A DNA stretch of 64,000 nucleotides from an uncultured Candidatus Binatia bacterium. Its GTDB lineage: Bacteria; Desulfobacterota; Binatia; UBA9968; CAXXLF01. How positions within the stretch are numbered: the stretch's first letter is position 1; each line of letters begins with the position of its first letter. The DNA lies in the NCBI GenBank assembly GCA_965218425.1, contig OZ244621.1, positions 1,248,001 through 1,312,000 on the forward strand. The letters are read 5' to 3'. Made by a program: the position numbers and the translations under genes. Positions 17,922 through 63,988 of the stretch are shown here, piece by piece. The notes beneath the pieces were generated by a model. That model made no database searches. It saw only the letters and a list, made by a program, of their open reading frames with translations, and was not told the DNA's origin.

Positions 17922-18344
17922 CTAGTCCAACAACGCAATAGTCCAGCCTCGCACGGGAGTTGTTTGACCGGTCTGAAATTCAACGACTGCAAAGTCCTCT
18001 ATTTCAGAGGACATGGGCTTATGCTTAACCATGACAAAGTCAAAACTGCCTATATCCTGAAGCCTGACCTCGGACAAGACAAGGATATCGTTTACCGACT
18101 GAAAGTGGTACCGGGCGATGTCCGTAAAAATAGCGTGGCTGTCCAGGAACCTCCGTGGACAAAGCGCCACTTCTTCGCCGTTGACATGCGCCGAACAGAC
18201 TCCAAAGGGATAATCAATAAGCCTGCTTTGCTTATAACAGACCTTCTCAACGAATGGGCACGAATGATTTCGTCTTGCCTCTTCAGCCTTGCTAGTCGTG
18301 TTCGAGAATGGAAAACCAAAGATCTCGGACGGATATTTTGCCAT
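17922..18344 (-). pseudogene. NotI-family restriction endonuclease, C-terminally truncated
   Basis: EIFG, CPF...C-K...GVCS...CPRRF Cys4 motif, SEVRL...FD...EFQ nuclease motif. The ORF ends about 15 aa after EFQT. Confidence 0.7.
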
Positions 18345-18347
18345 CTC

Positions 18348-19841
18348 TCAATTGCCTAATGCACTTCGCCAGAGTCGGTCTATTTCGGAATCGATGTTCT
18401 CACTATCCAGGCAGCAGCCTAATAATTGGGCGCAATCGCGACAAAAGCTAAAACTGTCGTTACAATTAATTGTCGGTTGTTGTCCGCAAATTGTTCCACC
18501 GATGAGCATTCAGAGCCACCGTCGACTTCACCAAGCACAGCGATCTTACGCCACCCCGCCGAGGTTGGCTTACGTTCAATCGGAGCAACTGCCCAATTCC
18601 CTGCATCTCGTATTCGGTCGTCAAATAGACGTCGGAGTGTCCCTGAGGTCTTCTGCGAAAATATGGGATTATTCTCCAAGGAAGTGTAAGGAAACGAGTA
18701 AGCATGATGCGAAAAGACATGGCGAATTGCCCCCGGTCTTCTCTTTTCCGACCCTTTATACCCGCATAGGAGCGAGTTAAATTCCAGCGACGTAGAAACG
18801 AGCAAGCCCAACCATAATCGATGTCTGGGATCTACCGAATCGAGCAATGTTTTGACAGCACTGACGTACAGCAACTGCCTTGGCGTGAACAGATCCAAGT
18901 AATTTGTGATGTTTTTCCCCAGTAAATCAGATGACTTGGGCCCGCCAAAAATTCTAAGAGATTCTTTGTCTGGTAGACGAGTCCGGGTGCATGTCTTCTT
19001 GGCCTTCGCAATTAAGTCGAGATCGCGTTTATCGACCGCCTTAAAAAAATTGGCCATCAGTTGGACAGAAGCCTGCGTTGATGAGTGGTACGTAGCGCTC
19101 AGGAAAAGATAACTCTGTCATGTTCCCCAGGGATTTCCCGCAAATCTGACAGCCAGTCTCGCCTTTCTCCAAGAGGGTCCATTGATGTCGCCCATGTTTC
19201 ACTTGCCCCGATGGATAATAATCCTCGATTCGCTTGTTGTCCCCATTTGGCTCTTCTCTCAGAAGACTCGAATCGAGGACCAATGCTTCACCACAGCTAC
19301 AAGATTTTCGCACGCCATAAAGAACAAACTGGAGTTCAGACGCTTGACGGCACGTTACGCATTGTGTTTGGAAATACGGGCGGAGCTTCTTTTCAAGTTC
19401 TCCTAAAAAACGTAGAAAAACTGGTTCCTTCTCTTCAATTGGAATCTGCAGTAATGACGCACGAACTTGCAACACGGGCACAGGGTCAAGGTCATACCCG
19501 ATTACACTTGCCCCAAGACGGATAGCTTCGTGAACAGTTGTACCACCCCCCATCATCGGATCGAGGACGGTAATACCCTCCAATCCCCCAGGAGCATAGT
19601 AATCCCGAAGTTTCTCATCCGGGACTAGCTGTTTTAGGATGTAGCGAAATATAGTTCCTGACCTTCGCGCCCACCATTTGTGGAGGTAAGTATTCGGTCG
19701 GAAGAGGTTCTTATTGAACGACTCCAAATGAGCTAGGCCATTTGCATCTTTTTCAGGAAATGACTCATTGATTGGAGCAGAAGCCAGCGGCTTTTGTTGC
19801 TTTCGCTCGTAAAACTGGATTTCAACCTGTTGCCGTGCCAT
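18348..19841 (-). pseudogene. Amino-DNA methyltransferase (DUF1156-like), frameshifted and internally deleted
   Basis: LHKWWARR, LDPMMGGGT and LFTPRQL motifs. Frameshift at a T7 run (about 19043-19049). No DPPY motif. The C-terminal tail is out of frame after about 18465. Confidence 0.75.
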
Positions 19842-19923
19842 GCCGGTAAACTACCTGCGCGAATGGGTGCTTGCAAGCTAAAAAACGACCTCAGTTTCCC
19901 TCAGAGAAAAATCCGCGTTTGGT

Positions 19924-20406
19924 CTATAACGGCTCCTCCCGAACGGCCTGGAAGACTTTTTCCGCAACCTCGCTGTACTCCGTCTTCTCAGGACGGACAA
20001 ATGTCAGTCCGCTGGTGATGGGAGACCCTGGCTCCTGGTCTTCCAGAAGCTGAGCCACCTCCACCCGAAAGAGTGACATGAAGGGGACCGACCCGAGGGA
20101 TTCTTGAATCTCCTGTGCCATTCCCTTGATGTAGTAATTGATCCCGGCGTCGGTAACTAAAAGCGTGATTTTCCCCGCCCGCCTCAAGTTCTTGCCCGTG
20201 GTGCTGGTCTTTCCCACCGCTATATGGATTTGCTTCTCGCTCTTGGCCACGATCTCGCAATAGGACAGCACGGCGGGATGGCACCATCCCTGCTCGTCCA
20301 CGGTAACAATGATAATGGCCTTCCCTTCCTTCGACCCAATATCGTTACCACTGAGTCGACCCAGCAACTCCTCGTTAATAACCTTACCCAAAAGCTTGGA
20401 CATCAT
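19924..20406 (-). CDS. FMN-binding split-barrel (PNPOx-like) protein; candidate prFMN maturase
   Basis: TVDEQGWCHPAVLS and STTGKNLRRAGKITL split-barrel motifs; lies downstream of ubiX. Confidence 0.75.
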   Translation of the reverse strand: MMSKLLGKVINEELLGRLSGNDIGSKEGKAIIIVTVDEQGWCHPAVLSYCEIVAKSEKQIHIAVGKTSTTGKNLRRAGKITLLVTDAGINYYIKGMAQEIQESLGSVPFMSLFRVEVAQLLEDQEPGSPITSGLTFVRPEKTEYSEVAEKVFQAVREEPL

Positions 20407-20467
20407 TTCCCCCCTAAGGGATTATCATCTCATTGCCGTAAAGATCTCCGATCCGATTGACGAATCA

Positions 20468-20941
20468 CTATTGACCGATGACCCATTCCTGCCTCTTACC
20501 GAATCCCTGTTCGTTGTCGATATAAAATACACGAGTCGGCTTGACGCAGTAGAATTTCACCTTGAGAAAGGCTCGATTGAGGATACCACTGCTGGGATCA
20601 CTGAATATCTTAATAATCCCAGGGTACTTACGTGCATAGACCGCCATGGCCTTTGCCTTTGAAATGACCGCTCCAACCTCCACCACCTCGCCTTCCATCT
20701 GAATGCCTTTGATCTTGCGCCAATCGCTGTAATCTTCCTGAATCGTTACCGCGACTTTCGAATTATCCTGCAAATTCTGACAGTGGCGTGATTGAGGATC
20801 AGAAAAGAAATAGAGATCCAACCCATCGCTTGCATAAAACACGGTGGCTGCCCAAGGGATATTTTCCCCGCAGGTGCCCAAGGTCATGGTGTTATGGCCT
20901 TCCACGTAACTCAGGATCCGTCGCTTTAAATCTTCAGCCAT
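20468..20941 (-). CDS. Pyridoxamine 5'-phosphate oxidase family protein (YhbP-like)
   Basis: MTLGT, PWAATVFY, SRHCQNL, KGIQMEG and DNEQGFG motifs. Confidence 0.85.
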   Translation of the reverse strand: MAEDLKRRILSYVEGHNTMTLGTCGENIPWAATVFYASDGLDLYFFSDPQSRHCQNLQDNSKVAVTIQEDYSDWRKIKGIQMEGEVVEVGAVISKAKAMAVYARKYPGIIKIFSDPSSGILNRAFLKVKFYCVKPTRVFYIDNEQGFGKRQEWVIGQ

Positions 20942-20946
20942 AGAAC

Positions 20947-21022
20947 CAGCTATGAGCTATCAGTCGTCAGCTTTCAGCTTCGATCCCCCGCCACCCATAG
21001 CTGACGGCTGAGCGCTGATCGC
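20947..21022. repeat. 7-bp-periodic inverted repeat (CAGCTAT/CAGCTTT units facing GCTGACG/GCTGAGC units)
   Basis: cagctat gagctat cagtcgt cagcttt cagc ... gctgacg gctgagc gctgatc. Confidence 0.7.
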
Positions 21023-21023
21023 A

Positions 21024-22097
21024 TTATTTAACCTTCTGCCAACCATAGGGAGACCTCCGCATAAGCGGAACTTTACGCAAGGAGGCCAAATTCTCAGCCC
21101 CAACGCAGAGCATCGCTACCTTCAGTTCACGAGTAATCCGCGACAAAAAATCTACCACATGGTCCGATGATTCCAAGGCCGGATTCAGAAGGGGCTGTCC
21201 GATACCCACGACATTGGCACCCAAGGCAACGGCCTTAGCCACATCAAGGCCACTGCGGATTCCGCCTGATGCCACCAACTCCATCTCCGGCACCGCGCCC
21301 CTCACCACAACCAGCGCCTCGTCCGTGGGAATACCCCAGGTCGCAAAGGTGTCATCGGCGGGCAGTCCCTGCCGCGCTGCTCGCTTAGCCTCCACCGCGT
21401 ACCAAGAGGTCCCCCCCGAACCTGCAACGTCAATGGCTCGGACTCCCGCCCCCCTGAGTCGAATGGCCACGTCCGCAGAAATACCACTGCCCACCTCCTT
21501 CGCCACGACTGGCACCTCCAACTGAGCACAAACCTCCCCAATTTTTTTCGTGAGTCCCCTGAAATTTCGATTCCCTTCGGGTTGGATCGCTTCCTGTAGA
21601 ACGTTGAGATGCAAGACGAGGCCGTCTGCCTGAATCATGCGAACTGCTTGACGGCACTGCTCGATATCGTACCCATAATTCAACTGGACCGCTCCCAGGT
21701 TACCGAGCAGCAAAATATCCGGCGCAACATCTCGAACCTGAAAAGACCTGGCCGCGCGAGGCTCCTCCAGGGCGACCCTTTGAGACCCCAGACCCATGGC
21801 TAGGCCCAAGTGCTGCGCCGCCTTGGCCAGATTTCGGTTCACTTTTTGTGCAAGATCAAATCCCCCCGTCATGGAAGAAATCAACAGAGGGGCTTTCAGT
21901 CCCTTCTCGACAAAATTCGTCCCGAGGTCGATATCATCGATATTCAATTCCGGTAAGGCGTTATGGACAAACGTGTATTGGTCCAAGCCCGTACTATGAG
22001 GGGATGCGACGGCCTCGTCATCCAGACAGAGTTCGAGGTGCTCCTTTTTTCTCTTCTGCGTTTTCGAGAGGGACTTTTTAGCCTTTTTGGCTGGCAT
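21024..22097 (-). CDS. fni: Type 2 (FMN-dependent) isopentenyl-diphosphate isomerase
   Basis: RKKEHL, SSMTGG, GSQR, HLNVLQE, KEVGSG, GSGGTSW and SGGIRSG motifs. Confidence 0.95.
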   Translation of the reverse strand: MPAKKAKKSLSKTQKRKKEHLELCLDDEAVASPHSTGLDQYTFVHNALPELNIDDIDLGTNFVEKGLKAPLLISSMTGGFDLAQKVNRNLAKAAQHLGLAMGLGSQRVALEEPRAARSFQVRDVAPDILLLGNLGAVQLNYGYDIEQCRQAVRMIQADGLVLHLNVLQEAIQPEGNRNFRGLTKKIGEVCAQLEVPVVAKEVGSGISADVAIRLRGAGVRAIDVAGSGGTSWYAVEAKRAARQGLPADDTFATWGIPTDEALVVVRGAVPEMELVASGGIRSGLDVAKAVALGANVVGIGQPLLNPALESSDHVVDFLSRITRELKVAMLCVGAENLASLRKVPLMRRSPYGWQKVK

Positions 22098-22115
22098 GGT
22101 ATGGCGGAGATGAGC

Positions 22116-22820
22116 TCATCGGCGCCGCTTTACGGCTGGCCTACGCTTGCTACCGCTAGCCACAGGAACGGACTTTCCGGCCCCCTGCGGTTCAGTGGGG
22201 CTCGATACCTTTGGACTGGAATCCGTCACCTTCGTAGCATCGGGATGGCGCTTCATCTGATGATCGTCCCATCGCTGAAAGAGGTCAAGGCCAATATCGA
22301 ACTGGTCCAGGACCCGAGCAACGGTTTGGTTGATCACATCGTCCAGGGTCTTGGGCCGGTGGTAAAAGGCAGGCACCGGCGGAAAGATAATCGCCCCAAT
22401 GCGGGTCAGAGTAACCATACTTTCCAAATGACCTAGATGTAGGGGGGTTTCGCGCGTGACCAGGACAAGCTTTTTCCTCTCCTTGAGCACTACATCGGCT
22501 GCGCGGACTAACAGGTCTCCCCCCACGGAAAGGGCAATTCCTCCTAGCGACTTCATGGAACAAGGGGCGATGACCATGCCCTCGGTGCGAAAAGAACCGC
22601 TGGCGATGCTTGCTCCTACGTTGTTGATATCGTGCACAAAGTCCGCCATGGCTTCCACATCTTTTACAGAATACAGTGTCTCCACCTGAATGGTCATCTT
22701 GGCCGCACGGGTCAATACCAGGTGTGTTTCCACGTCATCCACCTTGGAGAGAACGTCAAGAATGCGAATACCAAAAATGGCCCCGGTGGCACCCGAGAGA
22801 CCGACGATAAGACGACGCAC
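22116..22820 (-). CDS. ubiX: Flavin prenyltransferase
   Basis: GLSGATG, IASGS, PCSMKSL, RAADVVLKERKKLVLVTRETP and PPVPAFY motifs; GTG start with GGAGG RBS. Confidence 0.95.
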   Translation of the reverse strand: MRRLIVGLSGATGAIFGIRILDVLSKVDDVETHLVLTRAAKMTIQVETLYSVKDVEAMADFVHDINNVGASIASGSFRTEGMVIAPCSMKSLGGIALSVGGDLLVRAADVVLKERKKLVLVTRETPLHLGHLESMVTLTRIGAIIFPPVPAFYHRPKTLDDVINQTVARVLDQFDIGLDLFQRWDDHQMKRHPDATKVTDSSPKVSSPTEPQGAGKSVPVASGSKRRPAVKRRR

Positions 22821-22839
22821 AGAGATCCTCCTTCTACTC

Positions 22840-23265
22840 CTACGATTCGATAAACTCTAAAATCAACCGGTCCCCATCCTTAACATTAAGCGTATCCTTC
22901 ACATGAAAAGGAGCAATGACCTCGAGTTTATCCGGCGGATAATTATCCACTTCGGGGACTAGGACGGCAACCGTCTCGTTATCCTTTGGACCCACGGAGG
23001 GTCCACCAATGCGGGCTGTGAAGCAGCGGGCATTACAAAAAGAAGCTTCCGCAGGTGGAACATCAACTCCCCTCATGGATTTTTGCAGATCCTTCCATTG
23101 CTCCATCGCTTCGGTGGACTCAAGACGCAAATTGAGTGTCCCCGGATGAGGGGCAAAACCCACCCTTTCTCGGATGACTCGTTGGACCCACTCGAGGGCC
23201 ATAAAGGAAGCCCCCTGTCCTAAATCGGTAAACACCACACCGGTGATCCTTTTGCTGGCGGCCAT
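22840..23265 (-). CDS. ribK: CTP-dependent riboflavin kinase (archaeal RibK type, DUF120)
   Basis: G-V-TDLGQG, PHPGTLNL and LEVIAP...LNVKDGD signature motifs. Confidence 0.85.
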   Translation of the reverse strand: MAASKRITGVVFTDLGQGASFMALEWVQRVIRERVGFAPHPGTLNLRLESTEAMEQWKDLQKSMRGVDVPPAEASFCNARCFTARIGGPSVGPKDNETVAVLVPEVDNYPPDKLEVIAPFHVKDTLNVKDGDRLILEFIES

Positions 23266-23313
23266 CTTCCTTGGATAATATCGATGTACTCTGCCAGATC
23301 CTTAAACCGGGTT

Positions 23314-24117
23314 TCACGAATTACTCGTAGGGCCTTTATCTTTTCGTGAAAGAGACAGAGACCCGCCCTTTCCTCCTCGTCGAGCGAGAATGATCTCCGC
23401 GATGATCGCCACGGCAATCTCCTCGGGGGTCTCCGCGTGGAGATCCAAACCGATGGGGGCATAGACTCTTTGAATGATCTCGTCGGCGATCTTCTCCTCT
23501 TCCTTAAACCGATGGAAGCATGCCTTTACGCGTCTTCTGCTACCGATCATTCCAACGTATTTGGCCGGACTATGCACGATCTCTCGGAGACAGGGCTCAT
23601 CATACTTATGACCTCGGGTGACAAGCACAATATAGGTGGAAGGAGTGATGGCCATTCCCTTGAGGGTTTCCGCCATATCCCCCACCGTAACTTCGTCCAC
23701 ATCCGGAAACCTCTCTCGGTTGGCGAACAGGATGCGATCGTCGATGACGGTAACATGGAAATCCAATAGTCTGGCAATCTTCGCCAGCGGTACGGCAATG
23801 TGGCCTGCGCCCACCACGATGAGTTTTGGGGGCGAAAGCATCACGTCAAAGTAGATTTCCGCTTTGCCGCCGGTTGATGGGAGATCCAATGATACAAGCT
23901 TGGATCTCTCTTCCTTCAACCGTGTCTCGGCCTCCTTGAGGATCGCCGCCTTAAGCTCTTGATCTCGGATGGTTGCGGCTTTAACCTGCCCGTCACTAAT
24001 GAGGCATTTCGCTCCGGATTGCACCTGGCCGCCTTCCCCCGCATTCACCACCGTTGCCAACACCGCAGAGGCACGCGCTTTCTGGACGCTGATTAGCTCT
24101 TCAATCAACTCGCTCAT
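23314..24117 (-). CDS. XdhC/CoxF family Moco-insertion chaperone (CoxI-like plus Rossmann domain)
   Basis: GAGHIA, IDDR, VTRGHKYD, YVGMIGSRRR and PIGLDL-AETPEEIA motifs. The ATG at 24117 overlaps the upstream stop. Confidence 0.9.
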   Translation of the reverse strand: MSELIEELISVQKARASAVLATVVNAGEGGQVQSGAKCLISDGQVKAATIRDQELKAAILKEAETRLKEERSKLVSLDLPSTGGKAEIYFDVMLSPPKLIVVGAGHIAVPLAKIARLLDFHVTVIDDRILFANRERFPDVDEVTVGDMAETLKGMAITPSTYIVLVTRGHKYDEPCLREIVHSPAKYVGMIGSRRRVKACFHRFKEEEKIADEIIQRVYAPIGLDLHAETPEEIAVAIIAEIILARRGGKGGSLSLSRKDKGPTSNS

Positions 24118-24455
24118 TCTTTTGTTGGAGTCTCTTCCGCGCCCTTCCACCAAGGATCGATGAAGACGTTCATTATGCCACCGCAGACAGCGGGGCTATC
24201 CGAAGAGATATCGTCAAGGAGATCCACCCGCACTACCTTGGGCTTCCGCGTCCGGATGACTTCAATGGCCTCACGACGCACATCCGCCTCACCGCAACCA
24301 CCACCAATGGTCCCTAAGATTTCCCCCCAGGCGGTCACGGCCATCTTTGCTCCCACCTCCCTAGGAGTGGACCCACGAGTGGAGACGATGGTGGCCACGG
24401 CTAGGGTTTCCCCTTTATCCAAGAATTCTTTGATTTGGTCATAAATCTCATCCAT
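24114..24455 (-). CDS. Stand-alone XdhC/CoxI N-terminal domain protein
   Basis: GSTPREVGAKM, GTIGGGCGE and CGG motifs. Confidence 0.88.
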   Translation of the reverse strand: MDEIYDQIKEFLDKGETLAVATIVSTRGSTPREVGAKMAVTAWGEILGTIGGGCGEADVRREAIEVIRTRKPKVVRVDLLDDISSDSPAVCGGIMNVFIDPWWKGAEETPTKE

Positions 24456-24466
24456 TGCACGACCTC

Positions 24467-25684
24467 CTAAGCAACCAGTCGTTGCATCGTGGAGCCTAAC
24501 GCAACAAGGCTCTGAACATTGTGAACTGACAAAAAGTAATCCAAATGAGGAAGCACCGCTTGCATTCCTTTACACAAGGGCTGGTAGTCCTTGCTGGCCA
24601 AAAGGGGATTGAGCCATATCACCTTATGGCACCGTCTCTTTAAGTTTATCATTTCCTGCTCCAGCAAAGCCACATTCCCCCGGTCCCAACCATCACTGAT
24701 GACCACCACAACGGTCCGATGGGTCACCAGACTAGGGGCAAATTCCCTATTGAAGGCGGAAAGGGAACGGCCGATATTGGTCCCCCCTGACCAGCCCAGC
24801 ACATCACCCGAGATTCTCTCCAGTGCGTTCACGATGTCCCGGGTACGAATCATATGAGTGATACGGGTTAGGGAGGTGCTGAACACGAAGGTCTCCACAC
24901 CCCAGAGTTCGTTCTGCAGGCCATACATAAACTGGATTAAAAAGCGGCTATAACAGTCCATGGAACCGCTCACGTCACAAAGCAGAATCACGCGGGTTTT
25001 CTTGATTCTGCGCTTGCGCGAGACGAGGTCAATTAACTCTCCCCCGTATTTAATGTTCTTTCGCATGGTCCAGCGTGGATCTATCTCATCTCCTTTGACG
25101 GACCGCTTTTTCCGACGGCTCACCTGTGTGGCGATCTTCGAAGCAATGAGGAGGATCGCACGGCTAATGGCCCGACTCTCTTCGATCCCCATTTCACTGA
25201 AGTCTTTTTGGTTCAATACTTCCTGGGGGCTGTAGGTGGGAAGCGACAAGGGATCCCCCTCCTCGTTCTGATCCTCTTCGCCGTTGGCCACCTCTGTGGT
25301 TTCCTCTTGAACTTCTCCCGGCTCATCCCAGCCTTCACGGGATAATGAAGATGGCATCACCAATTCTTCGGACTCCCCTTGCTCCTCGGCTTCAGACATT
25401 CCTTTCCAAAAACATTCAAAGACGCGGTCGAACAGGGGCATCTGCTCCCTTTCAGAGACTAAGTTCGAACGAAGGACTGAGTAAAAGTCTTCTCGACGTC
25501 CGATATCCACGAATTCAAGGGAGCGGCTGGCATCCATCACCTGGCTCAGCCCCACCCTGAGGCCCAGATCTTTCATCACTCGCCCAAAGGCCAGCAGGTT
25601 CGGCAACAGTCCCGTTCCGCGCACTTTGGCGAAAGACTGAACCGTCTTGATAATATCTTGATCGGTGGGCTCTTCAGTGCTCAT
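24467..25684 (-). CDS. CoxE-like VWA domain protein
   Basis: CDVSGSM, FVFSTSLT, WSGGTNIG, ISDGWD and WLNPL motifs. Confidence 0.9.
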   Translation of the reverse strand: MSTEEPTDQDIIKTVQSFAKVRGTGLLPNLLAFGRVMKDLGLRVGLSQVMDASRSLEFVDIGRREDFYSVLRSNLVSEREQMPLFDRVFECFWKGMSEAEEQGESEELVMPSSLSREGWDEPGEVQEETTEVANGEEDQNEEGDPLSLPTYSPQEVLNQKDFSEMGIEESRAISRAILLIASKIATQVSRRKKRSVKGDEIDPRWTMRKNIKYGGELIDLVSRKRRIKKTRVILLCDVSGSMDCYSRFLIQFMYGLQNELWGVETFVFSTSLTRITHMIRTRDIVNALERISGDVLGWSGGTNIGRSLSAFNREFAPSLVTHRTVVVVISDGWDRGNVALLEQEMINLKRRCHKVIWLNPLLASKDYQPLCKGMQAVLPHLDYFLSVHNVQSLVALGSTMQRLVA

Positions 25685-25685
25685 C

Positions 25686-26612
25686 TTAGGATTGAAACCT
25701 CGCTGGTTCTTTGAGAATGCCGCCCAAATCCAGTTTCTTGTTGGTCACCTCTTCCTGCAGGTGGTGAAGGTCCTCTTTGTATTTAAAGACACATCCCATG
25801 GTTTCCTCCAGGGTCTTTTCGTCCAGTTGCTCGCGATGGAGGGCCATCAGGGCGCAGGCCCAATCGAGGGTCTCCGCCACACCGGGGCGTTTGTAGAAAT
25901 TCATCTGTCGAACCTGTTGCATAAAGGCACAAATCTGCTTTGCCAAAAGCTCCCCCACTTGGTCGTACTTCGTGATGACAATCTCATATTCCTTTTCAAA
26001 GGTGGGGTATTCGATCCAATGGTAAAGGCACCGCCGCTTGAGCGCGTCATGAATCTCTCGAGTCCGGTTGGAGGTGAGAAAAACATAGGGTCGCTGTTTG
26101 GCGCGGATGGTCCCAATCTCAGGTATGGTGATTTGAAAATCAGAAAGCACCTCTAAAAGAAAGGCCTCAAACTCCATATCCGCGCGATCGATTTCGTCGA
26201 TCAAGAGGACCGGTGGCGTGGAGCCCTCACTCTGTATGGCCTCCAATAGCGGCCGTTTAACGATGTACTCCTCTGTAAAGATCTCGGTTTCCAGATTCTT
26301 CCGGTCACCTTGCCCCACCTCCTCTAACTTGATGCGCAGCATCTGCTTGGGATAGTTCCATTCGTAAAGAGCCGTGTTCGCATCCAATCCCTCATAACAC
26401 TGGAGACGGATCAGGCGCGACTCCATGACCTCGGCAAGGACCTTGGCGATCTCCGTCTTGCCAACTCCAGCCTCCCCCTCTAGGAGCACAGGCTTGCCCA
26501 TTTGAACGGAGAGAAAGACCACGGTGGCCAGGCTCCTGTCGCAGATATATTGTTGTTTTCTCAATACTTCCTGAATCTTTTCAATGGTGAGTTTTTTCGG
26601 AATCATCGCCAC
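25686..26612 (-). CDS. MoxR AAA+ ATPase (CoxD-like)
   Basis: GEAGVGKT, LQCYEG, LLIDEID, TSNRTRE-HDALKRRC and PGVAETLDW motifs. Confidence 0.92.
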   Translation of the reverse strand: MAMIPKKLTIEKIQEVLRKQQYICDRSLATVVFLSVQMGKPVLLEGEAGVGKTEIAKVLAEVMESRLIRLQCYEGLDANTALYEWNYPKQMLRIKLEEVGQGDRKNLETEIFTEEYIVKRPLLEAIQSEGSTPPVLLIDEIDRADMEFEAFLLEVLSDFQITIPEIGTIRAKQRPYVFLTSNRTREIHDALKRRCLYHWIEYPTFEKEYEIVITKYDQVGELLAKQICAFMQQVRQMNFYKRPGVAETLDWACALMALHREQLDEKTLEETMGCVFKYKEDLHHLQEEVTNKKLDLGGILKEPARFQS

Positions 26613-26770
26613 CTCTCCCTTATGATATAAAGACGATTACCATACTCTGTTTCCCCCTGGGGATCAATGTCTTCAGACCGCCCGGACCGCCTCCCCATGA
26701 CACCCCAAACTTAATGTACTTTACGCCGACCGCCCCAAGCAAGAGGTGAAAACCCCGCACTTCCATGGGC

Positions 26771-27886
26771 TCAGTCCGGCTTTTGATTTCCTTGCAGTCG
26801 CCCCTGGTATTTTTGCCATGCCCCATCCCACCTTCGACGGATCTCGTCTACTGGGGCTTGAAATTCATCAATCCTCCGGAGGGTTTGAACTAGAAGTCGT
26901 ACGCTACCTTCAACATCCTTCAAGTGGACCCCCTCTGGGGCGATCACTCTTGCACCCTGGTTATGGTAATTTCTGAGCGGAACGGCCATTCCCCCAGCCA
27001 TGTAGCCCTTTAGCTGAAAGGGCGTCGCCTCGCATGTGCCCCCATCCATCACTCTGCGTTGAAACGAATAATCTTGATCTTTTTTCTTTTCCTCACGTGC
27101 CACGTGATCCATAAAAAGAACCATCTCATGATGAAACATGCTGGTCCGATCACCCAAGCGAATTACGGGCCCGCAACCCAAACGAACTCCAGGCAAGGCC
27201 TTACTGGTTTCAATGGAGATCATTTTAGTGGCGGGCGAAATGCACCCATCTTCAAGGATACCCAGAGTACCGACGAACCCTATTTCTTCAGCCCGTGTAA
27301 AAATAGCTAGGACCCCCTTTTTGAGGCCCCTTTGTTTGATCTCATTCAGGGCAGCAATCATCACCGCGCAGCCCACCAAATCGTCGGCCCCCTTTGTGTA
27401 GATCAATTCCCCCCGGCGGCGAAACGGCACAAGATCCCAGGTGCCGAAATCTCCTACATCCACAGCCCCATCCACTCTCAGTGTCATCTTGTCGACCCGC
27501 CCCTGATCGTTTTTTGAGATTTTTTCCACCCGGCCTTTGGCACTGACGTCGCCCGACGAATGCCGGTAAATCACCACCTTGGCACCCATGAAGTATTTCG
27601 GATCCACGCCTCCAAACCACTGGGCTTGTGCCCGGGTTCCCCTGGCCTCGATAATTTCAAATCCCGGATGGTCCATATGGGCGACCCAGGCCACGTGACT
27701 TTCCCCCTCCCCCCAGCGAACCAAAATATTGCCATAACGATCCATCTGTGGGGCGAGGCCCAATCCTTTTAATTCCTCGCAAATAAAGGAGCTCACAAAG
27801 CCTTCATGGAACGAGGCGGTGGGAAGAGGAAGAAGTCTTTCCAAAAGACGGATCAATGTCGTGCGTACCGACATAAGGTCTCTCAT
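26771..27886 (-). CDS. M20/M28/M42-type metallopeptidase
   Basis: AHMDHPG, ADDLVG, RAEEIG, GGTCEA and NYHN motifs. Start is about 27886 or 27874. Confidence 0.8.
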   Translation of the reverse strand: MRDLMSVRTTLIRLLERLLPLPTASFHEGFVSSFICEELKGLGLAPQMDRYGNILVRWGEGESHVAWVAHMDHPGFEIIEARGTRAQAQWFGGVDPKYFMGAKVVIYRHSSGDVSAKGRVEKISKNDQGRVDKMTLRVDGAVDVGDFGTWDLVPFRRRGELIYTKGADDLVGCAVMIAALNEIKQRGLKKGVLAIFTRAEEIGFVGTLGILEDGCISPATKMISIETSKALPGVRLGCGPVIRLGDRTSMFHHEMVLFMDHVAREEKKKDQDYSFQRRVMDGGTCEATPFQLKGYMAGGMAVPLRNYHNQGARVIAPEGVHLKDVEGSVRLLVQTLRRIDEFQAPVDEIRRRWDGAWQKYQGRLQGNQKPD

Positions 27887-27908
27887 TCCTTGGGCCCTAC
27901 GGCCCTGC

Positions 27909-28253
27909 TCACTTCTCTTCCCTTTTCTTTTCCTGAAGCTCCCTCTTCCAACCCAAAGTTCTAGCTTTGGCGGCAACTTCCTCTGCCTCCGCTATCATTC
28001 CCTTACGCTGATAAAAAATCGAAAGGCTGGTATGGGCCAGTTCATCTTCCGGGCTGACCTGGATCAGCTTCTTGCCAACCTCAACGGCCTCATCAAGCCT
28101 GTCAAGGTTGGCATAGGCCATGGCCAGGGCGTGCAATGCGTCCCCATAGCCTGGATCCAACTCCAAGGCCTTCTTATAGATTTCCAAAGCCTCTTCCATT
28201 TTGTCCTCGGCCAAGAGGTCCATGCCCTGGTTAAACAAATCTTCCTTGGTCAT
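27909..28253 (-). CDS. TPR repeat protein
   Basis: ALEIYKKALELDPGY and related TPR repeats; GGAGG RBS. Confidence 0.85.
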   Translation of the reverse strand: MTKEDLFNQGMDLLAEDKMEEALEIYKKALELDPGYGDALHALAMAYANLDRLDEAVEVGKKLIQVSPEDELAHTSLSIFYQRKGMIAEAEEVAAKARTLGWKRELQEKKREEK

Positions 28254-28447
28254 TTTCGGTCCTCCCTAGGCAACCGTGGCCAACCCGTCCCGTAATCAGT
28301 TGGGGAAGTCTAGCCCACACTGTAAGGGTCGGCAACTCCCCCAAAGGCGTTGATTGAAAAATCATCGAGTGTTTGACACAAATGAATTGAGACCCATTGA
28401 TATAACTTTAACTGGGAAGCCTCGTTCGCTATGTTGATGCGCACTTA

Positions 28448-29537
28448 TTGATCCTCGTATAATATAATGACATCAGAAAAGGCTGGACTGTTTCCAGAAG
28501 GCGGTAACGAGACGAGGCCTGCGGCGCATTCGGCAAAGGGCCCGACGAGCATGGTGGCTGAGTTGAGCGAAGTCCTTGGCACAGAAGTTGGGCAGTTCAT
28601 GATGCTTCCAGTATCCCCAGAGGTATTCGACGGGATTCAGTTCCGGTGCATAGGCCGGCAACCGTTCCAGCACCAACGCGCCTTCGGTAGCGGCAACAAA
28701 GTCCCGAACCAACCGGCTCCGGTGGCTGGGCAGTCCGTCCCACACTACCAGCAGCGGCCCGGAAACATGACGCATCAAGTGCTTCAGGAATTCGATGATC
28801 TGGGGGCTCTTGATGGCTCCCGGATACACTCGAAAGTACAAGCGCCACCAGGTGACTCCGGCGATGGCCGACAGACTCTTCCAGTTGAAGTGATATTGCA
28901 GCACTGGCGTCTGTCCTCGGGGCGACCACGTACGATACCGATTCGGCCGCTCGCTCAGCCCGCTTTCGTCCACGAACACTATGGTTCGCCCCTCGTTTCG
29001 GGCTTTTTTTTAATCTCCGGCCAGCGCTTCTTCTTCCACTGCCGGATCGCCTCTTCATCTCGTTCCAAGGCACGTCCCGTCGGCCGCTGGCAACTCCACC
29101 CCAACTGCCGCAATATCCGCCAAACATGGCCCGGATGGTATGTGACTCCGCAGGCTTCCCCAATCAAGTGGGCCACTCGCCTTGCGGTCCACAGGCTCGT
29201 GTCGTACCCCAGCGCTTCGGGTCCCCGTTTCAAACCGCCCTCGATCTTCTTCAGATCCGCCGGGCTCAGTCGCGGCTTGCGTCCGGCACGCCCCGCCTGC
29301 TTGAGCCCGGCTCTGCCGCTCTCGGCCAACTGCCGCGCCCATCGATTCACCGACTGGCGGTGCACTCCCACCCAACGCGCCACCTCCGCCTCCGACAGCC
29401 CTCGCTTCAACAGCCTCCCCGCCTCCATCCACCGCCGCTCCAATGCTTCAAAGTCCCGTCGCACTCCAAGTGGGTTTCCCATACCACCACTATACATTAA
29501 GTTCTTATCCAATGTTACTATATTATGCGGTTCTCAA
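28448..29537 (-). mobile_element. IS630-family insertion sequence, apparently intact (1090 bp)
   Basis: Imperfect terminal IRs (TTGATCCTCGTATAATATA / TTGAGAACCGCATAATATA) and a TA duplication at 28446-47 and 29538-39. Confidence 0.9.
28473..29482 (-). CDS. IS630 transposase (HTH orfA plus DDE orfB joined by a -1 frameshift)
   Basis: orfA has HTH motifs and LGWSCQRP. orfB has FVDESG, VWDGLPSH and LPAYAPELNPVE. An A8G slippery run lies at 29004-29011. Confidence 0.9.
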
Positions 29538-35912: not shown

Positions 35913-37179
35913 CCGGGATTCCCCACGTGGAGCCTTCCAGCGGTTTGAGCTTAACTCGAAACCGCCCGCGAGGCAATTCTCAGGCCTATTGCAGGGCATC
36001 ATTGAGCGGGTTCCATGCAACGAAGGTCCAATCGGCGACGCTGGTTGGCGAAACTGAACGTCCCGGCCGTTTTCCAGACACACCCGTGCTGTCATCTTGG
36101 AGGATGAGCAGTATCCCCTCGGTCATGCCGGGCCTGGCTTGGGTCTGAGCCGGTCGATACGGCTCAGGATGTCGGCGAACAGCTCTCTCGGGATAGCGAC
36201 CTCGGCCACCTGGAAGATGACGTACCGGCCGTGGCGGATGATCTTCGCACCGATCTTGATGAGTTTCTCTCGGAGCGTTATCAGCGACCACTGTTCCACG
36301 GCATCGGGCAAAGCGAGTGTGCGCATGAAATTGCCGAGGTTGTAGGCGAGCGCGTGAAGCTGTAGCCGGACGGCATTGTGGTCGAACCTGCGGCACGACA
36401 GCCGGGTCCATTTGATGGCATTCTTGCCTTCCTTGATGCACTGTTCCGCCGTGCCGCGTTGATTGTAGAAGGCGACGACGCGCTCGGCCGGTCGAGACAA
36501 GTTGGTGACGATGAAGCCGACGCGGGGATACAGTTCCCCGGGATGCCACTCCACCTTGGCGACAACCCGGCGCTTCCTGTCCCACGAGCCTGCATGATAG
36601 CTGAAGCTGGCATGGAAGCGGCGAACATGGTTCGGCGGGCGACCGACGGGACGGGAGAGCAAATGGGCGATGCTTTCCTGAAGAACCGCGTTGGCTTTGA
36701 TACGGATGGCGTAGGTGTAGCCTTCGGCTTCCAGGAATTCATAGATGTCCGGTGAGGCAAAGGCGGCATCCCCTCGGAAATAACGCCGCAGCTTTCGCAA
36801 TGGCACGACCGCCGACAATCCAGCGCATCGCCGGATCACGACCCAGGCGGTCAGCGTCGTTCACGTCTTCGTAGCCACCGAGGCGGCCGAAGACCGACTG
36901 ATGAAACAATCCCGTCAGCGCGTGCTGGCCGTTCTTGCCGGTGCGCGGATCAACCAGTTCATCGCCAACCATGTCCGTCAACCCGAGTGCGTCATCGAGT
37001 TCACGGTAGGTAAGCAATCCAGCGTCGGTGGTGATCCTGGAACCATGAAACTCAAGCTTCAGGCGGCGGTCGAAATCAAGCCGCAAAGGCTCGTTCCCAG
37101 ATGCATCCAACACATTGATTCTTACAGTAGAATCAGCATAAATCCGTACCCATTAATGGTGCCATATGGGAAATGCGGG
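35913..37179 (-). mobile_element. IS1380-family element with an internally deleted transposase
   Basis: IRs CCGGGATTCCCCACGTGG / CCCGCATTTCCCATATGG; flanks TTTAG/CTTAG. N-terminal TTDAGLL...GYEDVNDAD and C-terminal RGDAAF...YNQRGTAEQCIKEGK are fused out of frame at about 36790. Confidence 0.88.
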
Positions 37180-37312
37180 CTTAGGATTGTTGAGAGCAAC
37201 ATCAACGGAGCTGTGGGATTGGAAACTGAACTCCAAGTTGTTCAGGACGCATAATCCCCCAAAGAGTTGACAAAATCCACCGTCTGGGCTAGGAACGGTA
37301 TTAGTTTTGTCG

Positions 37313-37389
37313 GCTTTTGCGCAACTGGCGTCTAAGTGGAAGAAACCACGGAGGAGCGCTAAGCTTCAAGATGGCCGAACGCCTGGGTC
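37313..37389 (+). ncRNA. ZMP/ZTP (pfl) riboswitch aptamer
   Basis: GCGCAACTGGCG...GTGG-AGAAA-CCAC-GGAGGAGCGC, linker, then GCCGAACGCCTGGG. This matches the pfl consensus including the pseudoknot CUGGCG/CGCCUGG. It lies 5' of one-carbon/purine genes. Confidence 0.88.
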
Positions 37390-37417
37390 TCTTATATAAA
37401 GAGGTTCAGGCTTTTTT
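37381..37417 (+). terminator. Intrinsic terminator overlapping the riboswitch 3' domain
   Basis: GCCTGGGTCTC-loop-GAGGTTCAGGC followed by TTTTTT. Confidence 0.8.
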
Positions 37418-52955: not shown

Positions 52956-54353
52956 ATGGAACAGGCCAAAAATCTCCTAAGAGAGATACCCTCGGTGGAC
53001 CGCCTGCTAAAGCATACCCGAAGCGTGCGTCTCCTGGAGCGTTACAATCGCGAATATGTCACTCGAAAATGCAGAGAATGCGTGGATGAGATACGGAAGG
53101 CACTGCGACAAGGCAAAACGCTAAAGCATGAGGCATTAGAGGAAGAGTCGATCCTAGATCGAATTGAAGTAAAGATTGCCTCGGAGAGCGAGCCAAAACT
53201 CAAGCAGGTCGTTAATGCCACAGGCACAGTACTGCACACGAATCTCGGACGTGCGGTCTTGCCCCAGGCGGCTATGGATGCCCTTAGCACCATCGGTCGC
53301 CATCCCGTAAATCTAGAATATGACCTCTCCAAGGGAAAACGCGGCAAGAGGGAAGAACCCATTGAGAATGCCCTCCTTGAGCTCACGGGTGCACCGGCCG
53401 CCACGGTTGTGAACAATAATGCCGCGGCGGTGTTGCTGGGCTTGAATACCCTCGCATTTGGCAGGGAGGTAATCGTGTCCCGCGGAGAACTAATCGAGAT
53501 TGGCGGCTCTTTCCGGATTCCAGAGATCATGGAAAAAAGCGGTGCTATTCTCAAGGAGGTGGGGAGCACCAATCGCACCCACCCCGGGGACTATGAGAAG
53601 GCCATCACCAAAAGGACAGCCTTACTACTTAAAGTGCACACGAGTAACTACCGGATCGTCGGATTCTCCTCCGAGGTAGATCTCCATGACCTCGTGGCCA
53701 TAGGGAAGAAACACAAGGTCCCCGTCATGGAGGACCTAGGCAGCGGTGCCTTCGTAGACCTGGGTCAATACGGGCTACCAAAGGAACCATTAGTGGCGGA
53801 ACGGATCGCCCTGGGCGCAGATGTGGTAACCTTTAGCGGCGACAAAATACTGGGGGGGCCCCAGGCAGGGCTCATCGTTGGCAAGGAGCTCTGGATCAAC
53901 CGCATGAACCGCAACCCCCTCAAGAGGGCGCTACGCTGTGGCAAGCTCACATTGGGTGTATTGGAAGCGGTCCTGAGGCTCTATCAACAATCTCTCGATG
54001 TCACCCAATCGATCCCCACACTGAAGGCCTTCACACGCCCTCTTGAAGAGATCGAAGAGATGGGGAAACGTCTCCTGCCCCTCCTTGAAAAGACCCTCGG
54101 AGAAGGGTTCCTGGTAAGCCTAGAGGATTCTGGTTCTGAGATCGGCAGCGGTTCGCTCCCCACGGAAGAGATTCCTACCAAGGTCATCGCTATTCACCAT
54201 GGAGGCATAGGGGCTCAAAAGATCGCTCGGTTGTTCCGTGTGTCAGATCCGCCGATACTGGGTCGGGTCAAGGACGGCCGCTTTCTGCTGGATTTGAGGG
54301 CAATCTTCAATCCTGAAGACTTGATCCCTCGACCAACGACTTATACCTCCTAA
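52956..54353 (+). CDS. selA: L-seryl-tRNA(Sec) selenium transferase
   Basis: NATGTVLHTNLGRA, SRGELIEIGGSFRIP, EVGSTNRT and FSGDKILGGPQAG motifs. Confidence 0.97.
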   Translation: MEQAKNLLREIPSVDRLLKHTRSVRLLERYNREYVTRKCRECVDEIRKALRQGKTLKHEALEEESILDRIEVKIASESEPKLKQVVNATGTVLHTNLGRAVLPQAAMDALSTIGRHPVNLEYDLSKGKRGKREEPIENALLELTGAPAATVVNNNAAAVLLGLNTLAFGREVIVSRGELIEIGGSFRIPEIMEKSGAILKEVGSTNRTHPGDYEKAITKRTALLLKVHTSNYRIVGFSSEVDLHDLVAIGKKHKVPVMEDLGSGAFVDLGQYGLPKEPLVAERIALGADVVTFSGDKILGGPQAGLIVGKELWINRMNRNPLKRALRCGKLTLGVLEAVLRLYQQSLDVTQSIPTLKAFTRPLEEIEEMGKRLLPLLEKTLGEGFLVSLEDSGSEIGSGSLPTEEIPTKVIAIHHGGIGAQKIARLFRVSDPPILGRVKDGRFLLDLRAIFNPEDLIPRPTTYTS

Positions 54354-59520: not shown

Positions 59521-60567
59521 TCAGGCTAGACGGACCCAGGCCTTTTGCAGGGGAACTGCGTAGCCGATGTTGGTGGCATGCTCGACCCCATTGGAAAGTA
59601 AGTCGTCTACAAGCTTGGCCGCATGTCTTTGGGGCAGAGCAATCAAGAGGCCTCCCGAAGTTTGGGGGTCGTAGGCCGCCTCAACTAGACCTGCATTGAT
59701 TTTTGGACCAATGGTGACTTTGTCTTTCAGGTAATCCCGGTTTCTCTTACTTCCGCCGGTGAGATAACCTTTCTCGGCGAGTCTCTCGCTGTGATGAAGC
59801 ATCGGCAACTTTTCTGATTCCACCACCAGGGTAACGCCGCTTCCGGTGGCCATCTCCAGCGCATGGCCCAACAGTCCGTATCCTGTAACGTCAGAGCAGG
59901 CGTGGACGCGATGCTTCCGGATCACGGTGGAGGCGTTCTTGTTGAGGGTGGTCATGGATGTGACGGCTGCATCGACGCTTTCCTTAGAGGCTTTCCCTTT
60001 TTTCAGCGCGGTAGAGATAATCCCCGTTCCCAGAGCTTTGGTCAGGATGAGGGCGTCCCCCTCTTGCACTCCAACGTTTCGTAGAACGCGGTCCGGATGG
60101 ATCACACCGGTGACGGCCATGCCGTATTTGATTTCATCGTCGATAATGCTGTGGCCCCCAATGATAACCGCCCCGGCCTCATGGACCTTCTCTGCCCCTC
60201 CCTTGAGGATTTTTCCCAGCACCTGGATGTCCATTTTGTCTTTGGGAAAACACACGATATTCATGGCAGTGGCGGGTTCACCACCCATGGCGTAAACGTC
60301 GCTCAAGGAGTTGGTAGCCGCCACTTGCCCAAAGAGATAGGGGTCGTCCACGATAGGTGTGAAAAAGTCGACGGTGTTAACGATGGCCAGGTCGGAACGT
60401 AGCCGAAAAACCCCCGCATCGTCGGAGGTCTCCGTACCGACGATAACACCGGGATGTTCAGTCTTGGGTAGGCTGTGCAAAACTTGCACAAGGTCGGCGG
60501 GGCCGAGCTTGGCAGCTCAACCAGAGGCCTTGACGTGATGGGTCAGCCGAATTGCTTTTTGGCTCAT
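59521..60567 (-). CDS. selD: Selenophosphate synthetase, selenocysteine-containing
   Basis: MSQKAIRLTHHVKASG-UGA-AAKLGP, with Sec at codon 17 (60517-60519). DDAGV, TVDFFTP, SDVYAMGG, DVTGYGL and DPQTSGGLL motifs. Confidence 0.95.
60475..60516 (-). promoter_or_regulatory. Candidate bacterial SECIS of selD
   Basis: Downstream of the UGA: UCGGC-CCC-GCCGA and GUGCAA-GUU-UUGCAC stems. The G-starting apical loop is 34 nt from the UGA. Confidence 0.6.
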
Positions 60568-60625: not shown

Positions 60626-62539
60626 TTACGCAGGTGGTGGCGATTTAAGCCTTCTTGTGTCTCCAATCCTGAGGGTGATCCCTTCGCGGTCAAAATGTTC
60701 AAGAAGGGCAATGGTAAACTTGCGACTGGAGCTTAGAAGGTCGCGAAACGTAGCCGCGTTGATCTCCTTATGCTCCGAGAGGTACTTATATAAGACTGCT
60801 TTTACCCTGTCAACGGATTCCGCAAGAAAGTAGAGGTCTGTGGTGATTCGCACAACACTCCCTTCCCGTTCCATTACCCGAATTACTTCCATGAGCTTTC
60901 CCCGTCCAATTCCGATCTCCTTTTCTATTTCTTTCAAGTCCGGCGGGGCGAGGGGACTTCGACGGAGAACTCCCCTGATTTTCTCCGTAATGGATCGCTC
61001 TTCATCCTGCAGCTGGATCTTGTGTTCCGGCAAGCGCAGAAAGTTGCCCTCTCGCGCCAATGCCTTTAGGCCAGCAAACTGGTCCAAGAGATTGCGAAAC
61101 AGTCTGGGCGGTATCTCGTAGGGGAGCTTGGCCCGTAGCTCCTCCATGTCCATGCCAGGGGCTAAAGGATGAGAGCCATGGAAAATCTTTAAAGTCGCCA
61201 GGATCTTGTCCCTGAGTGTGTGCCACTTTTTGTCTGTTGTGTAGACCTTCTCACCCTCGGAGGTATAACTCAAAACACCTTTCGTCTGATTGAGCCATTC
61301 AAGGGTTCTCTCTTCCATGAAATTGAGAAACTGACAGGTGGTCGCAAAAGGGGTGGCGAAATCGGTGCTTTCGTTCAGAAAAGTTTCTATCAATTCTAGA
61401 CTGCTCTCGTTGGCAAGAGACTCCAGCCTTTGTTGAAGATCCTTCTCGCCCCGTTTGTGCCTCTTCGCCCAGGGGTGAATCACCCTCCCGCCTCCCAAGG
61501 TGCGTTGGGCGGTTTCGTCCCGGATGATGAATCGGTCCCCACGCATCACCAAGAGGGGGGAAGATAGCGCCACCTGACAACAGGCCGTTTCCTTGGGCTC
61601 GACCTTTTCCATGGGTCCCAGGATTACGAGTTTGCCCAGCCGCTCTGCGGTTCCCAAATGGACCCTCACCCGCTGATGATTTTTAATTCCTTTTGTGGCA
61701 GCGGGCCGTACCTCAAGATGGGCATCGAATAGATCTGAAGTGCGGGTGAGTTTCTCGTGACAGATGACGTGGCCGCGCTCGATGGAGGACCTTTCAGGCC
61801 CGGTGAGATTGAGGGCGACCCGCTGCCCCCAACCGGCCGAATCAACTGACTGATTGTGGACCTGCAAACTACGCACGCGAAAGGTCTGGTCCCCTGGCAA
61901 ACAGTGAACCTTGTCCCCAACATTAATGGCGCCACTCAGCGCGGTGCCCGTGACAATTACGCCGTGGCCTGTAAGGGCAAACACCCGGTCTACGGGGAGA
62001 CGGAAATAGCTGCTGGGAGGTCTTTGGTCTGCGTTTTGCAGCATCTGCACGATCTGGCTGCTGAGTTCCGTCAAGCCCTGCCCAGTCACTGCGGAAAAAG
62101 TGAGGATAGGTGAGTCTTCCAAGGTGGTGCCGACGGTGAGGATACGGATTTCCTCCTCAACGTCTGGAATCCTTGTCGCCGGGACGAGGTCCGTCTTGGT
62201 GATGAGGAAAATGACCAGCTTGACACCAAGTAGGTGCACGATGTCGAGGTGTTCCTCGGTCTGGGGCATTACCCCGTCGTCGGCAGCCACCGTAAACAAA
62301 ACGAGGTCCATACCATGGGCGCCGGCGAGCATATTGCGGATGAACCGCTCGTGACCGGGTACGTCGACGATACCAGCCTGGCTACCGTCCGGTAAGTCCA
62401 TATGGGCAAAGCCGAGGTCAATGGAGATTCCTCGCTCTTTTTCTTCTTTGAGACGATCGGTGTCATGGCCTGTCAAGGCCTTGATGAGGCTGGTTTTGCC
62501 GTGGTCGATGTGACCGGCCGTTCCGATGATGTATGGCAT
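60626..62539 (-). CDS. selB: Selenocysteine-specific elongation factor
   Basis: [17 protein letters not shown] and TKTD motifs; C-terminal wHTH with FRDLL-SSRK...LLEHFD. Confidence 0.97.
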
Positions 62540-63893: not shown

Positions 63894-63988
63894 GGAGAAG
63901 GAAGGTGCCCGGTGGTGCCGCTGGTCTTCAAAACCAGTCTGGGGGTCGTAAGGCTCCCGGAGGGTTCGACTCCCTCCCTTCTCCGCCA
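63894..63988 (+). tRNA. selC: tRNA-Sec (anticodon UCA)
   Basis: GGAGAAGG acceptor pairs with CCTTCTCC-GCCA; CTGGT-CTTCAAA-ACCAG anticodon arm; long variable arm; GTTCGAC T-loop; 95 nt. Confidence 0.97.

Follow-up and report, generated by a model that had tools for sequence, protein, structure and literature searches.

A conserved nine-gene block in Candidatus Binatia likely forms a central supply and activation line for prenylated FMN

Enzymes of the UbiD family are in demand as catalysts of (de)carboxylation, but their heterologous activation often fails for want of supply or maturation of the cofactor, prenylated flavin mononucleotide (prFMN) (PMC13040415, PMC10865409). The phdA-phdB-phdC operon of Mycolicibacterium fortuitum encodes a UbiD decarboxylase, a UbiX and PhdC, and PhdC is an oxidative maturase that turns the prFMN radical into the active iminium with O2 or ferricyanide (PMC13040415). 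The same source counts 86 PhdC-like sequences, every one of them in Actinomycetota. Another helper, LpdD of Lactiplantibacillus plantarum, is a small prFMNH2-binding chaperone that is co-transcribed with a UbiX homologue and aids UbiD activation; its fold resembles a proteasome-assembly chaperone (PMC10865409). Here we describe a string of nine genes in a 64,000-nucleotide stretch of DNA (the window) from a Candidatus Binatia bacterium. The window covers bases 1248001-1312000 of the one contig, 4.46 Mb long and 97% complete, that makes up the assembly. With good confidence, we regard this block as the single, central prFMN supply and activation line of a genome with 72 UbiD genes.

Like phdABC of M. 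fortuitum, the Binatia block pairs a UbiX with a PhdC-type split-barrel protein, here called pnpB, which keeps the equivalent of PhdC Glu47. Unlike phdABC, it contains no UbiD gene (the 72 clients are encoded elsewhere), and it adds a RibK-like kinase, a type-2 isopentenyl-diphosphate isomerase (IDI-2, gene fni), a second split-barrel protein (pnpA) and genes of the type that mature the molybdenum cofactor (Moco). Compared with LpdD the fold is different, and neither pnpA nor pnpB resembles that chaperone. The initial annotation had recognised a cassette of five co-oriented genes with gaps of 18-82 nt, and the open reading frame (ORF) list together with the family scans bears this out: ribK, ubiX, fni, pnpA and pnpB all lie on the minus strand with successive gaps of 19, 18, 82 and 61 nt. 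The five genes are real, but the block does not start at 23265, as that annotation had it; four more genes lie upstream, to 26612, which brings the conserved unit from five genes to nine. From the first gene to the last, and with one loosely associated neighbour, the features are:

25686-26612, minus strand, MoxR/CoxD-like AAA+ ATPase (aaa), first gene of the conserved block; PF07728 (AAA_5) 46.8 bits
24467-25684, minus strand, CoxE-like VWA protein (vwa); PF05762 (VWA_CoxE) 210.2 bits
24114-24455, minus strand, small XdhC/CoxI N-domain protein, a separate gene (xdhC_N); PF02625 (XdhC_CoxI) 88.8 bits
23314-24153, minus strand, XdhC-like accessory protein with a weak N-domain and a Rossmann domain (xdhC_C); PF13478 (XdhC_C) 152 bits; 48 nt upstream of ribK
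22840-23265, minus strand, RibK-like archaeal-type (CTP-dependent family) riboflavin kinase, 141 aa; PF01982 91.4 bits (cut-off 25), 5e-26
22116-22820, minus strand, UbiX flavin prenyltransferase, 234 aa, GTG start; NF004685 271.5 bits (cut-off 188)
21024-22097, minus strand, IDI-2 (fni), 357 aa; TIGR02151 410.8 bits (cut-off 281.3)
20468-20941, minus strand, pnpA, PNPOx-like FMN-binding split-barrel protein, 157 aa; PNPOx_N PF01243 53.2 bits (cut-off 28.1)
19924-20406, minus strand, pnpB, PhdC-like candidate prFMN oxidative maturase, 160 aa; PNPOx_N 28.4 bits, marginal (cut-off 28.1)
26771-27976, minus strand, M42-like peptidase, loosely associated, 158 nt gap upstream of the block; PF05343 81.9 bits

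The genome contains 72 UbiD (PF01977) matches over the cut-off, all of them open frames of 460-577 aa. A hidden Markov model (HMM) search of the same genome for UbiX gave one match, the cassette gene, so that one UbiX would serve 72 potential clients. By tblastn, ribK, fni, pnpA, pnpB, both xdhC genes, vwa and aaa are likewise single copy. The initial annotation had proposed a module supplying distant UbiD enzymes, and this proposal is strongly supported by 72 UbiD paralogues against one copy of each cassette gene. It had also reported no UbiD client nearby. Indeed, the 64 kb window yielded no UbiD gene, even when 35 further ORFs were scanned with Pfam, and the nearest of the 72 matches lies about 105 kb from the cassette. 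Related genomes with the cassette are also rich in UbiD: five without fni have 31-39 matches each, and five with fni have 26-66. Of 80 further genomes sampled from the phylum, 3 alone exceeded 50 UbiD candidates; none of the others had more than 7 matches. A RibK-like gene is present in each of the 3 UbiD-rich genomes and in none of two UbiD-free genomes of the same class.

The surroundings of the clients were surveyed by crude longest-ORF calling directly beside the 72 UbiDs, which gave 133 non-UbiD and 10 UbiD ORFs; these were clustered by blastp, and of the 13 multi-member clusters, 12 were scanned through one representative each. The largest clusters were ABC solute-binding proteins (14), Rieske/LigXa-like oxygenases (13), bicupins (10), Mo-hydroxylase large subunits (6), Amidohydro_2 proteins (3) and LigB proteins (3). 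These families point to aerobic catabolism of aromatic acids, which would fit a PhdC-type maturase that uses O2. A literature search, with subscription journals outside its coverage, returned no paper that links UbiD to Binatia or Binatota and, by title and abstract, no relevant paper pairing a riboflavin kinase with UbiX, UbiD or prFMN.

Conservation of the block in relatives was assessed with two sets of loci, one seeded with RibK (83 loci) and one with pnpA (80 loci), some contigs being present in both. The order is aaa, vwa, xdhC_N, xdhC_C, ribK, ubiX, (fni), pnpA, pnpB. In the RibK-seeded set, 27 Binatia-type loci have it as far as their contigs extend, and 58 of the 80 pnpA-seeded loci carry the complete block, of which 44 include fni and 14 lack it. 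In 19 others the block is interrupted by a contig end, which leaves three true exceptions. One of these, L169, from a metagenome-assembled genome labelled Gammaproteobacteria, has the order fni, pnpA, ubiX, ubiD; the other two are taken up below. The pnpA and pnpB genes are adjacent in 79/80 loci, and with the whole block kept in 58/80 the gene order is far from chance. Both sets thus agree with the five-gene annotation in that its order recurs in relatives. Median gaps between alignments are 41 nt for xdhC_C-ribK (85 locus copies), 17 nt for ribK-ubiX and 56.5 nt for pnpA-pnpB, and the small XdhC N-domain gene is a separate match in all related blocks. The peptidase stands upstream in 11/80 loci, within the fetched flank.

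Each of the five cassette families has a housekeeping role in some organisms, and one could suppose that they are adjacent by accident, with RibK and IDI-2 working in flavin and isoprenoid metabolism at large and UbiX in quinone biosynthesis alone. We find this scarcely credible. The order is kept across genomes in which RibK is only 41-91% identical, a RibF is encoded separately, and IDI-2 is absent from whole related genomes and hence not essential there; moreover, a RibK-like gene next to UbiX or UbiD is a recurrent arrangement in several phyla.

Immediately downstream of pnpB, two ORFs at 18419-19841 (minus strand) occupy a stretch of lower GC content (0.484). One of them has a weak DNA-methylase motif and two genome paralogues at 34-36% identity. 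The two ORFs are not conserved in related loci and so may be an inserted element.

The RibK-like protein is of the same fold family as MJ0056 of M. jannaschii (PDB 2p3m, 2vbu), an archaeal CTP-dependent riboflavin kinase. Its profile aligns full-length with 2p3m (2.8e-23, positions 4-131 of 133), and the shared motifs PGTLN and EIIAP are invariant in 19/19 rows. It differs from MJ0056 in being bacterial, in adjoining UbiX, in coexisting with a normal RibF, the only RibF-type flavokinase, which is encoded elsewhere in the genome, and in scoring under the cut-off of the NCBIfam equivalog ribK_Meth (51.9 bits against 168). We take it for a RibK-like riboflavin kinase, with a nucleotide preference predicted from its family, and apparently an extra kinase beside RibF. 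A protein below the equivalog cut-off in a genome that already has RibF might act on another substrate, making dimethylallyl monophosphate (DMAP) from prenol or re-phosphorylating a dephosphorylated prenyl-flavin, and where UbiX enzymes obtain their DMAP is in general not settled. The full-length alignment with MJ0056 and the invariant motifs speak against another substrate, as does the glutamine of the cassette UbiX described below, which makes dimethylallyl diphosphate (DMAPP) a plausible direct substrate; we consider such a role very unlikely.

Outside Binatia, 11 of 22 bacterial loci have RibK next to UbiX and/or UbiD; none of 36 archaeal loci does. Among these bacterial neighbourhoods are the UbiD clusters of Rhodocyclales (Aromatoleum buckelii, Sulfuritalea) and Thermincola (loci L035, L040, L042, L052 and L054), in which RibK also adjoins UbiX and, in some cases, an IDI-2 or PNPOx-like gene is nearby, as in the Binatia block. 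In those clusters the helpers form part of a single client operon that has three to five UbiD genes, whereas the Binatia helpers are detached from every client, centralised, and joined to PhdC-like and predicted Moco-maturation genes. In another UbiD-rich genome of the phylum (L097, 9231-10702), fni is adjacent to a RibK-like gene without UbiX. In a tree of 83 RibK sequences the Binatia genes form one clade (support 100/99), within which the loci without fni form a nested clade (support 100/100); this nesting suggests that fni was lost in a sub-lineage. Deeper forks do not separate one origin from several for the bacterial UbiX-linked RibKs.

The cassette UbiX is full-length and over the curated cut-offs (TIGR00421, 237.3 bits against 108.9; 237.7 bits in the HMM search of its own genome). 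Its closest solved relatives are E. coli O157 UbiX (1sbz, 5e-60) and A. niger PAD1 (6qlg, 3e-58). A. niger PAD1 uses DMAPP specifically, E. coli O157 UbiX uses both donors, and P. aeruginosa UbiX uses DMAP; in AnUbiX, Q203 hydrogen-bonds the beta-phosphate of DMAPP, and the residue at this position does not by itself decide donor choice (PMC6541611). Gln165 of the cassette UbiX aligns with AnUbiX Q203 and with PaUbiX F181, and it is kept in 92/92 Binatia-type locus copies, with or without fni (some contigs were fetched twice). On this basis the cassette UbiX could plausibly take DMAPP directly. The initial annotation had seen a hint of a DMAPP-using UbiX, and the glutamine at the beta-phosphate position and the closest solved relatives, which accept DMAPP, fit that hint. 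Compared with the solved UbiX enzymes (AnUbiX, E. coli and PaUbiX), the cassette protein adds a basic C-terminal tail of about 45 residues. This tail (22116-22250) is of low complexity, rich in Ser, Pro, Lys and Arg, and lies beyond the end of all solved UbiX structures; in relatives, tblastn matches span residues 1-234 in L010 and 5-234 in L009.

The IDI-2 alignment with TIGR02151 covers positions 1-335 of 338. As a member of the supply block, which is how the initial annotation had it, IDI-2 holds its place in the 44 complete blocks that carry fni, and is dispensable in the nested sub-lineage. It is optional and not essential to the prFMN supply line, as it is missing from the other 14 blocks and from five whole genomes. 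The genome has two IspH genes and no HMG-CoA reductase was found in it, and isopentenyl diphosphate (IPP) and DMAPP would accordingly be expected to come from the methylerythritol phosphate (MEP) pathway. An archaeal-type mevalonate route, which the initial annotation had listed among possible clients, finds no support in these two results and was rejected.

We searched pnpB against PDB sequences with phmmer, and only the PhdC entries 9srg and 9nk0 were matched (7.2e-5, single sequence). A profile of 18 family members again matched PhdC alone (9e-7). The sequence alignment is limited to the N-terminal ~90 residues. An AlphaFold (AF2) model of pnpB, with a predicted local distance difference test (pLDDT) score of 78, was compared with known structures by Foldseek; ranks 1-5 and 7-10 were PhdC chains (TM-score 0.67-0.75, 154-157 columns, 20-23% identity), the best of them with TM-scores of 0.71-0.75 over 157 columns. 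Conserved residues of PhdC are Glu47, Glu136 and Trp138 (PMC13040415). Glu51 of pnpB aligns with the active-site Glu47 and is invariant in 18/18 rows. By sequence and by modelled fold, pnpB is a PhdC homologue and a candidate maturase outside Actinomycetota. The initial annotation had offered both split-barrel genes as maturation proteins, and for one of the two, pnpB, this homology sustains the proposal.

The second split-barrel protein, pnpA, scored 55.5 bits against the YhbP equivalog NF002900, under the cut-off of 176. Its AF2 model (pLDDT 93.9) is a generic split barrel, no PhdC chain is among the Foldseek matches listed for it, and the protein atlas returned only PNPOx-named clusters. 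A wider scan was seeded by a distant family member and covered 80 loci outside Binatia, with ±8 kb fetched for each; these came from Chloroflexota, Alpha-, Beta- and Gammaproteobacteria, Acidobacteriota, Acidimicrobiia, Geobacter relatives and SAR324. UbiX and/or UbiD lay within 8 kb in 62 of them (UbiX in 35, within 300 nt in 20; UbiD in 43). A RibK-like gene was found in 14/80, a pnpB-like gene in 2/80, and fni in none within ±8 kb. The link of pnpA to UbiX and UbiD spans phyla, and chance is unlikely as its cause, though related loci are not independent. In many betaproteobacterial loci the pnpA-family gene lies at a constant ~5.2 kb from a divergently oriented UbiD gene, which suggests a conserved cluster.

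An alternative is that pnpA and pnpB have nothing to do with prFMN and only happen to lie downstream, as PNPOx-family proteins with, for example, a haem-, F420- or stress-related role. The best structural neighbours of pnpA are indeed haem-binding or -degrading split barrels (MSMEG_6519, HugZ) and Rv2991, pnpB reaches the Pfam PNPOx_N cut-off only marginally, and two loci have the pnpA-pnpB pair without UbiX within 8 kb. Set against this, PhdC is the only PDB match of pnpB by sequence and the best by fold, the pnpA family keeps company with UbiX and UbiD in the other phyla as counted above, and the pair follows UbiX or fni in 77/80 Binatia-type loci, contig-end cases included. We therefore give this alternative little credence, and retain a prFMN supply and activation line that includes both proteins.

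The upstream half of the block resembles a known system. The genes coxD, coxE and coxF are maturation genes of the Mo-Cu CO dehydrogenase, and XdhC serves xanthine dehydrogenase; the AAA+ MoxR, VWA CoxE and XdhC families occur in the same order in the Binatia block. In contrast to that system, the Binatia set stands away from Mo-hydroxylase structural genes, its XdhC is split in two, and it is fused with prFMN genes. The nearest PF02738 (Mo-hydroxylase) match is ~32 kb from the block, which is not beside a Mo-hydroxylase structural operon. The NCBIfam scores are all under cut-off: NF045664 (XdhC_rel_AOR) 209.3 against 350, NF047784 (MadB) 274.8 against 475, and MadC 74.8 against 600. The best NCBIfam names at 24467-26612 are thus 'MadB family' for the AAA+ protein and 'MadC family' for the VWA protein, both far under the cut-off. 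The genome encodes about 32 full-length Mo-hydroxylase large subunits, and five relatives encode 18-40. Of 33 Mo genes, 13 are found no more than 5 kb away from a UbiD gene. In 2000 trials of uniform random placement, a null that ignores regional clustering, the count averaged 4.6 and reached 12 at most.

With about 32 Mo-hydroxylases and no other XdhC in the genome, the aaa, vwa and xdhC genes already have obvious clients. The CoxD-like and CoxE-like proteins and the two XdhC proteins probably mature the molybdenum cofactor of these enzymes. Alternatively, all nine genes could make up one UbiD-activation machine, in which the CoxD/CoxE/XdhC-like proteins place prFMN in apo-UbiD or remodel it there and play no part in Moco maturation. 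The tight spacing of xdhC_C and ribK (48 nt here, close on the median in relatives), the single copy of every gene and the persistence of both halves together in 58/80 loci would suit such a machine. Nevertheless, the proteins match Mo-enzyme maturation families (XdhC_C 152 bits, VWA_CoxE 210 bits), the Mo-hydroxylases are obvious clients for the genome's only XdhC genes, and RibK-UbiX modules outside Binatia have no aaa, vwa or xdhC neighbours. We judge a single UbiD machine of nine genes unlikely, and keep to a prFMN line that shares its string with Moco maturation.

From the gene identities, the copy numbers, the synteny and the PhdC homology and fold of pnpB, which are direct results, we infer the catalytic steps, the co-transcription and the part of pnpA as follows. 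The RibK-like kinase would convert riboflavin to FMN beside the housekeeping RibF, and IDI-2, where present, would convert IPP from the MEP pathway to extra DMAPP. UbiX would then join reduced FMN to DMAPP (possibly DMAP) to give prFMNH2. The pnpA protein would assist, most likely in the reduction of FMN or else in carrying or oxidising prFMNH2, and the PhdC-like pnpB would oxidise the cofactor to the active iminium form. Finished prFMN would load apo-UbiDs encoded elsewhere, in aerobic aromatic-acid catabolic clusters. The CoxD/CoxE/XdhC genes would serve the Mo-hydroxylases. With Moco-maturation and prFMN genes in one string, the block would be a hub that matures two cofactors for co-expanded and partly co-located enzyme families.

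Several observations weigh against this reading. The strictly conserved C-terminal ExW motif of PhdC (Glu136, Trp138) is not recognisable in pnpB, which has no Trp in that region, and the loop expected to hold it (residues 127-139) is modelled at pLDDT <50. Candidate equivalents are position 143, acidic in 13 of the 15 rows reaching there, and the invariant E122-D-Q-E125; YclD is also without the Trp of ExW (PMC13040415). Further, pnpA has no functional anchor, its family being uncharacterised, and its best structural neighbours are of the haem-binding kind. Two 16 kb loci, the remaining exceptions to the conserved order, hold pnpA-pnpB without other block genes. IDI-2 is missing from 14/58 complete blocks, and it was not found anywhere in the five fni-less genomes, which keep 31-39 UbiDs. 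The RibK score under its equivalog cut-off counts on the same side. Finally, a promoter/terminator scan of 18000-29000 stayed within the range of shuffled sequences (12 against 7.8±2.8; 9 against 11±3.5), and no Rfam element was found in 19000-29000 at E up to 1, so that there is no FMN riboswitch there.

Elsewhere in the window, a ZMP/ZTP riboswitch (56 bits against a gathering score of 39) stands at 37311-37395 on the plus strand, upstream of genes for a class-V aminotransferase, a phosphoglycerate-dehydrogenase-like protein and adenylosuccinate synthetase. A selenocysteine toolkit is encoded at 52956-54353, 59521-60489, 60626-62539 and 63894-63984, namely SelA, an AIR-synthase-family protein (possibly SelD), SelB and tRNA-Sec. 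A DDE transposase ORF at 36123-36839 (minus strand) covers no more than the C-terminal half of its Pfam model (217-434 of 435) and is probably a fragment.

What is new here is a prFMN helper set that is centralised, free of clients, linked to Moco genes and PhdC-bearing. A bolder proposal is that the pnpA family is an undescribed, widespread component of prFMN biogenesis, for example an FMNH2-donating reductase, or a prFMNH2 carrier or first oxidase acting before the PhdC-type maturase, and that the block is a single co-regulated Moco/prFMN operon for more than 100 clients in the breakdown of aromatic acids; we put this forward tentatively, at somewhat less than an even chance. As a further split-barrel family with a UbiX link over several phyla, pnpA has a function that is directly testable. 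The block offers a candidate PhdC-type maturase outside Actinomycetota and, as a compact natural gene set that evidently supports dozens of UbiDs per cell, is a candidate helper cassette for these enzymes. For the Binatia, a common uncultured lineage of soil and groundwater, it goes with very large repertoires of UbiD and Mo-hydroxylase enzymes.

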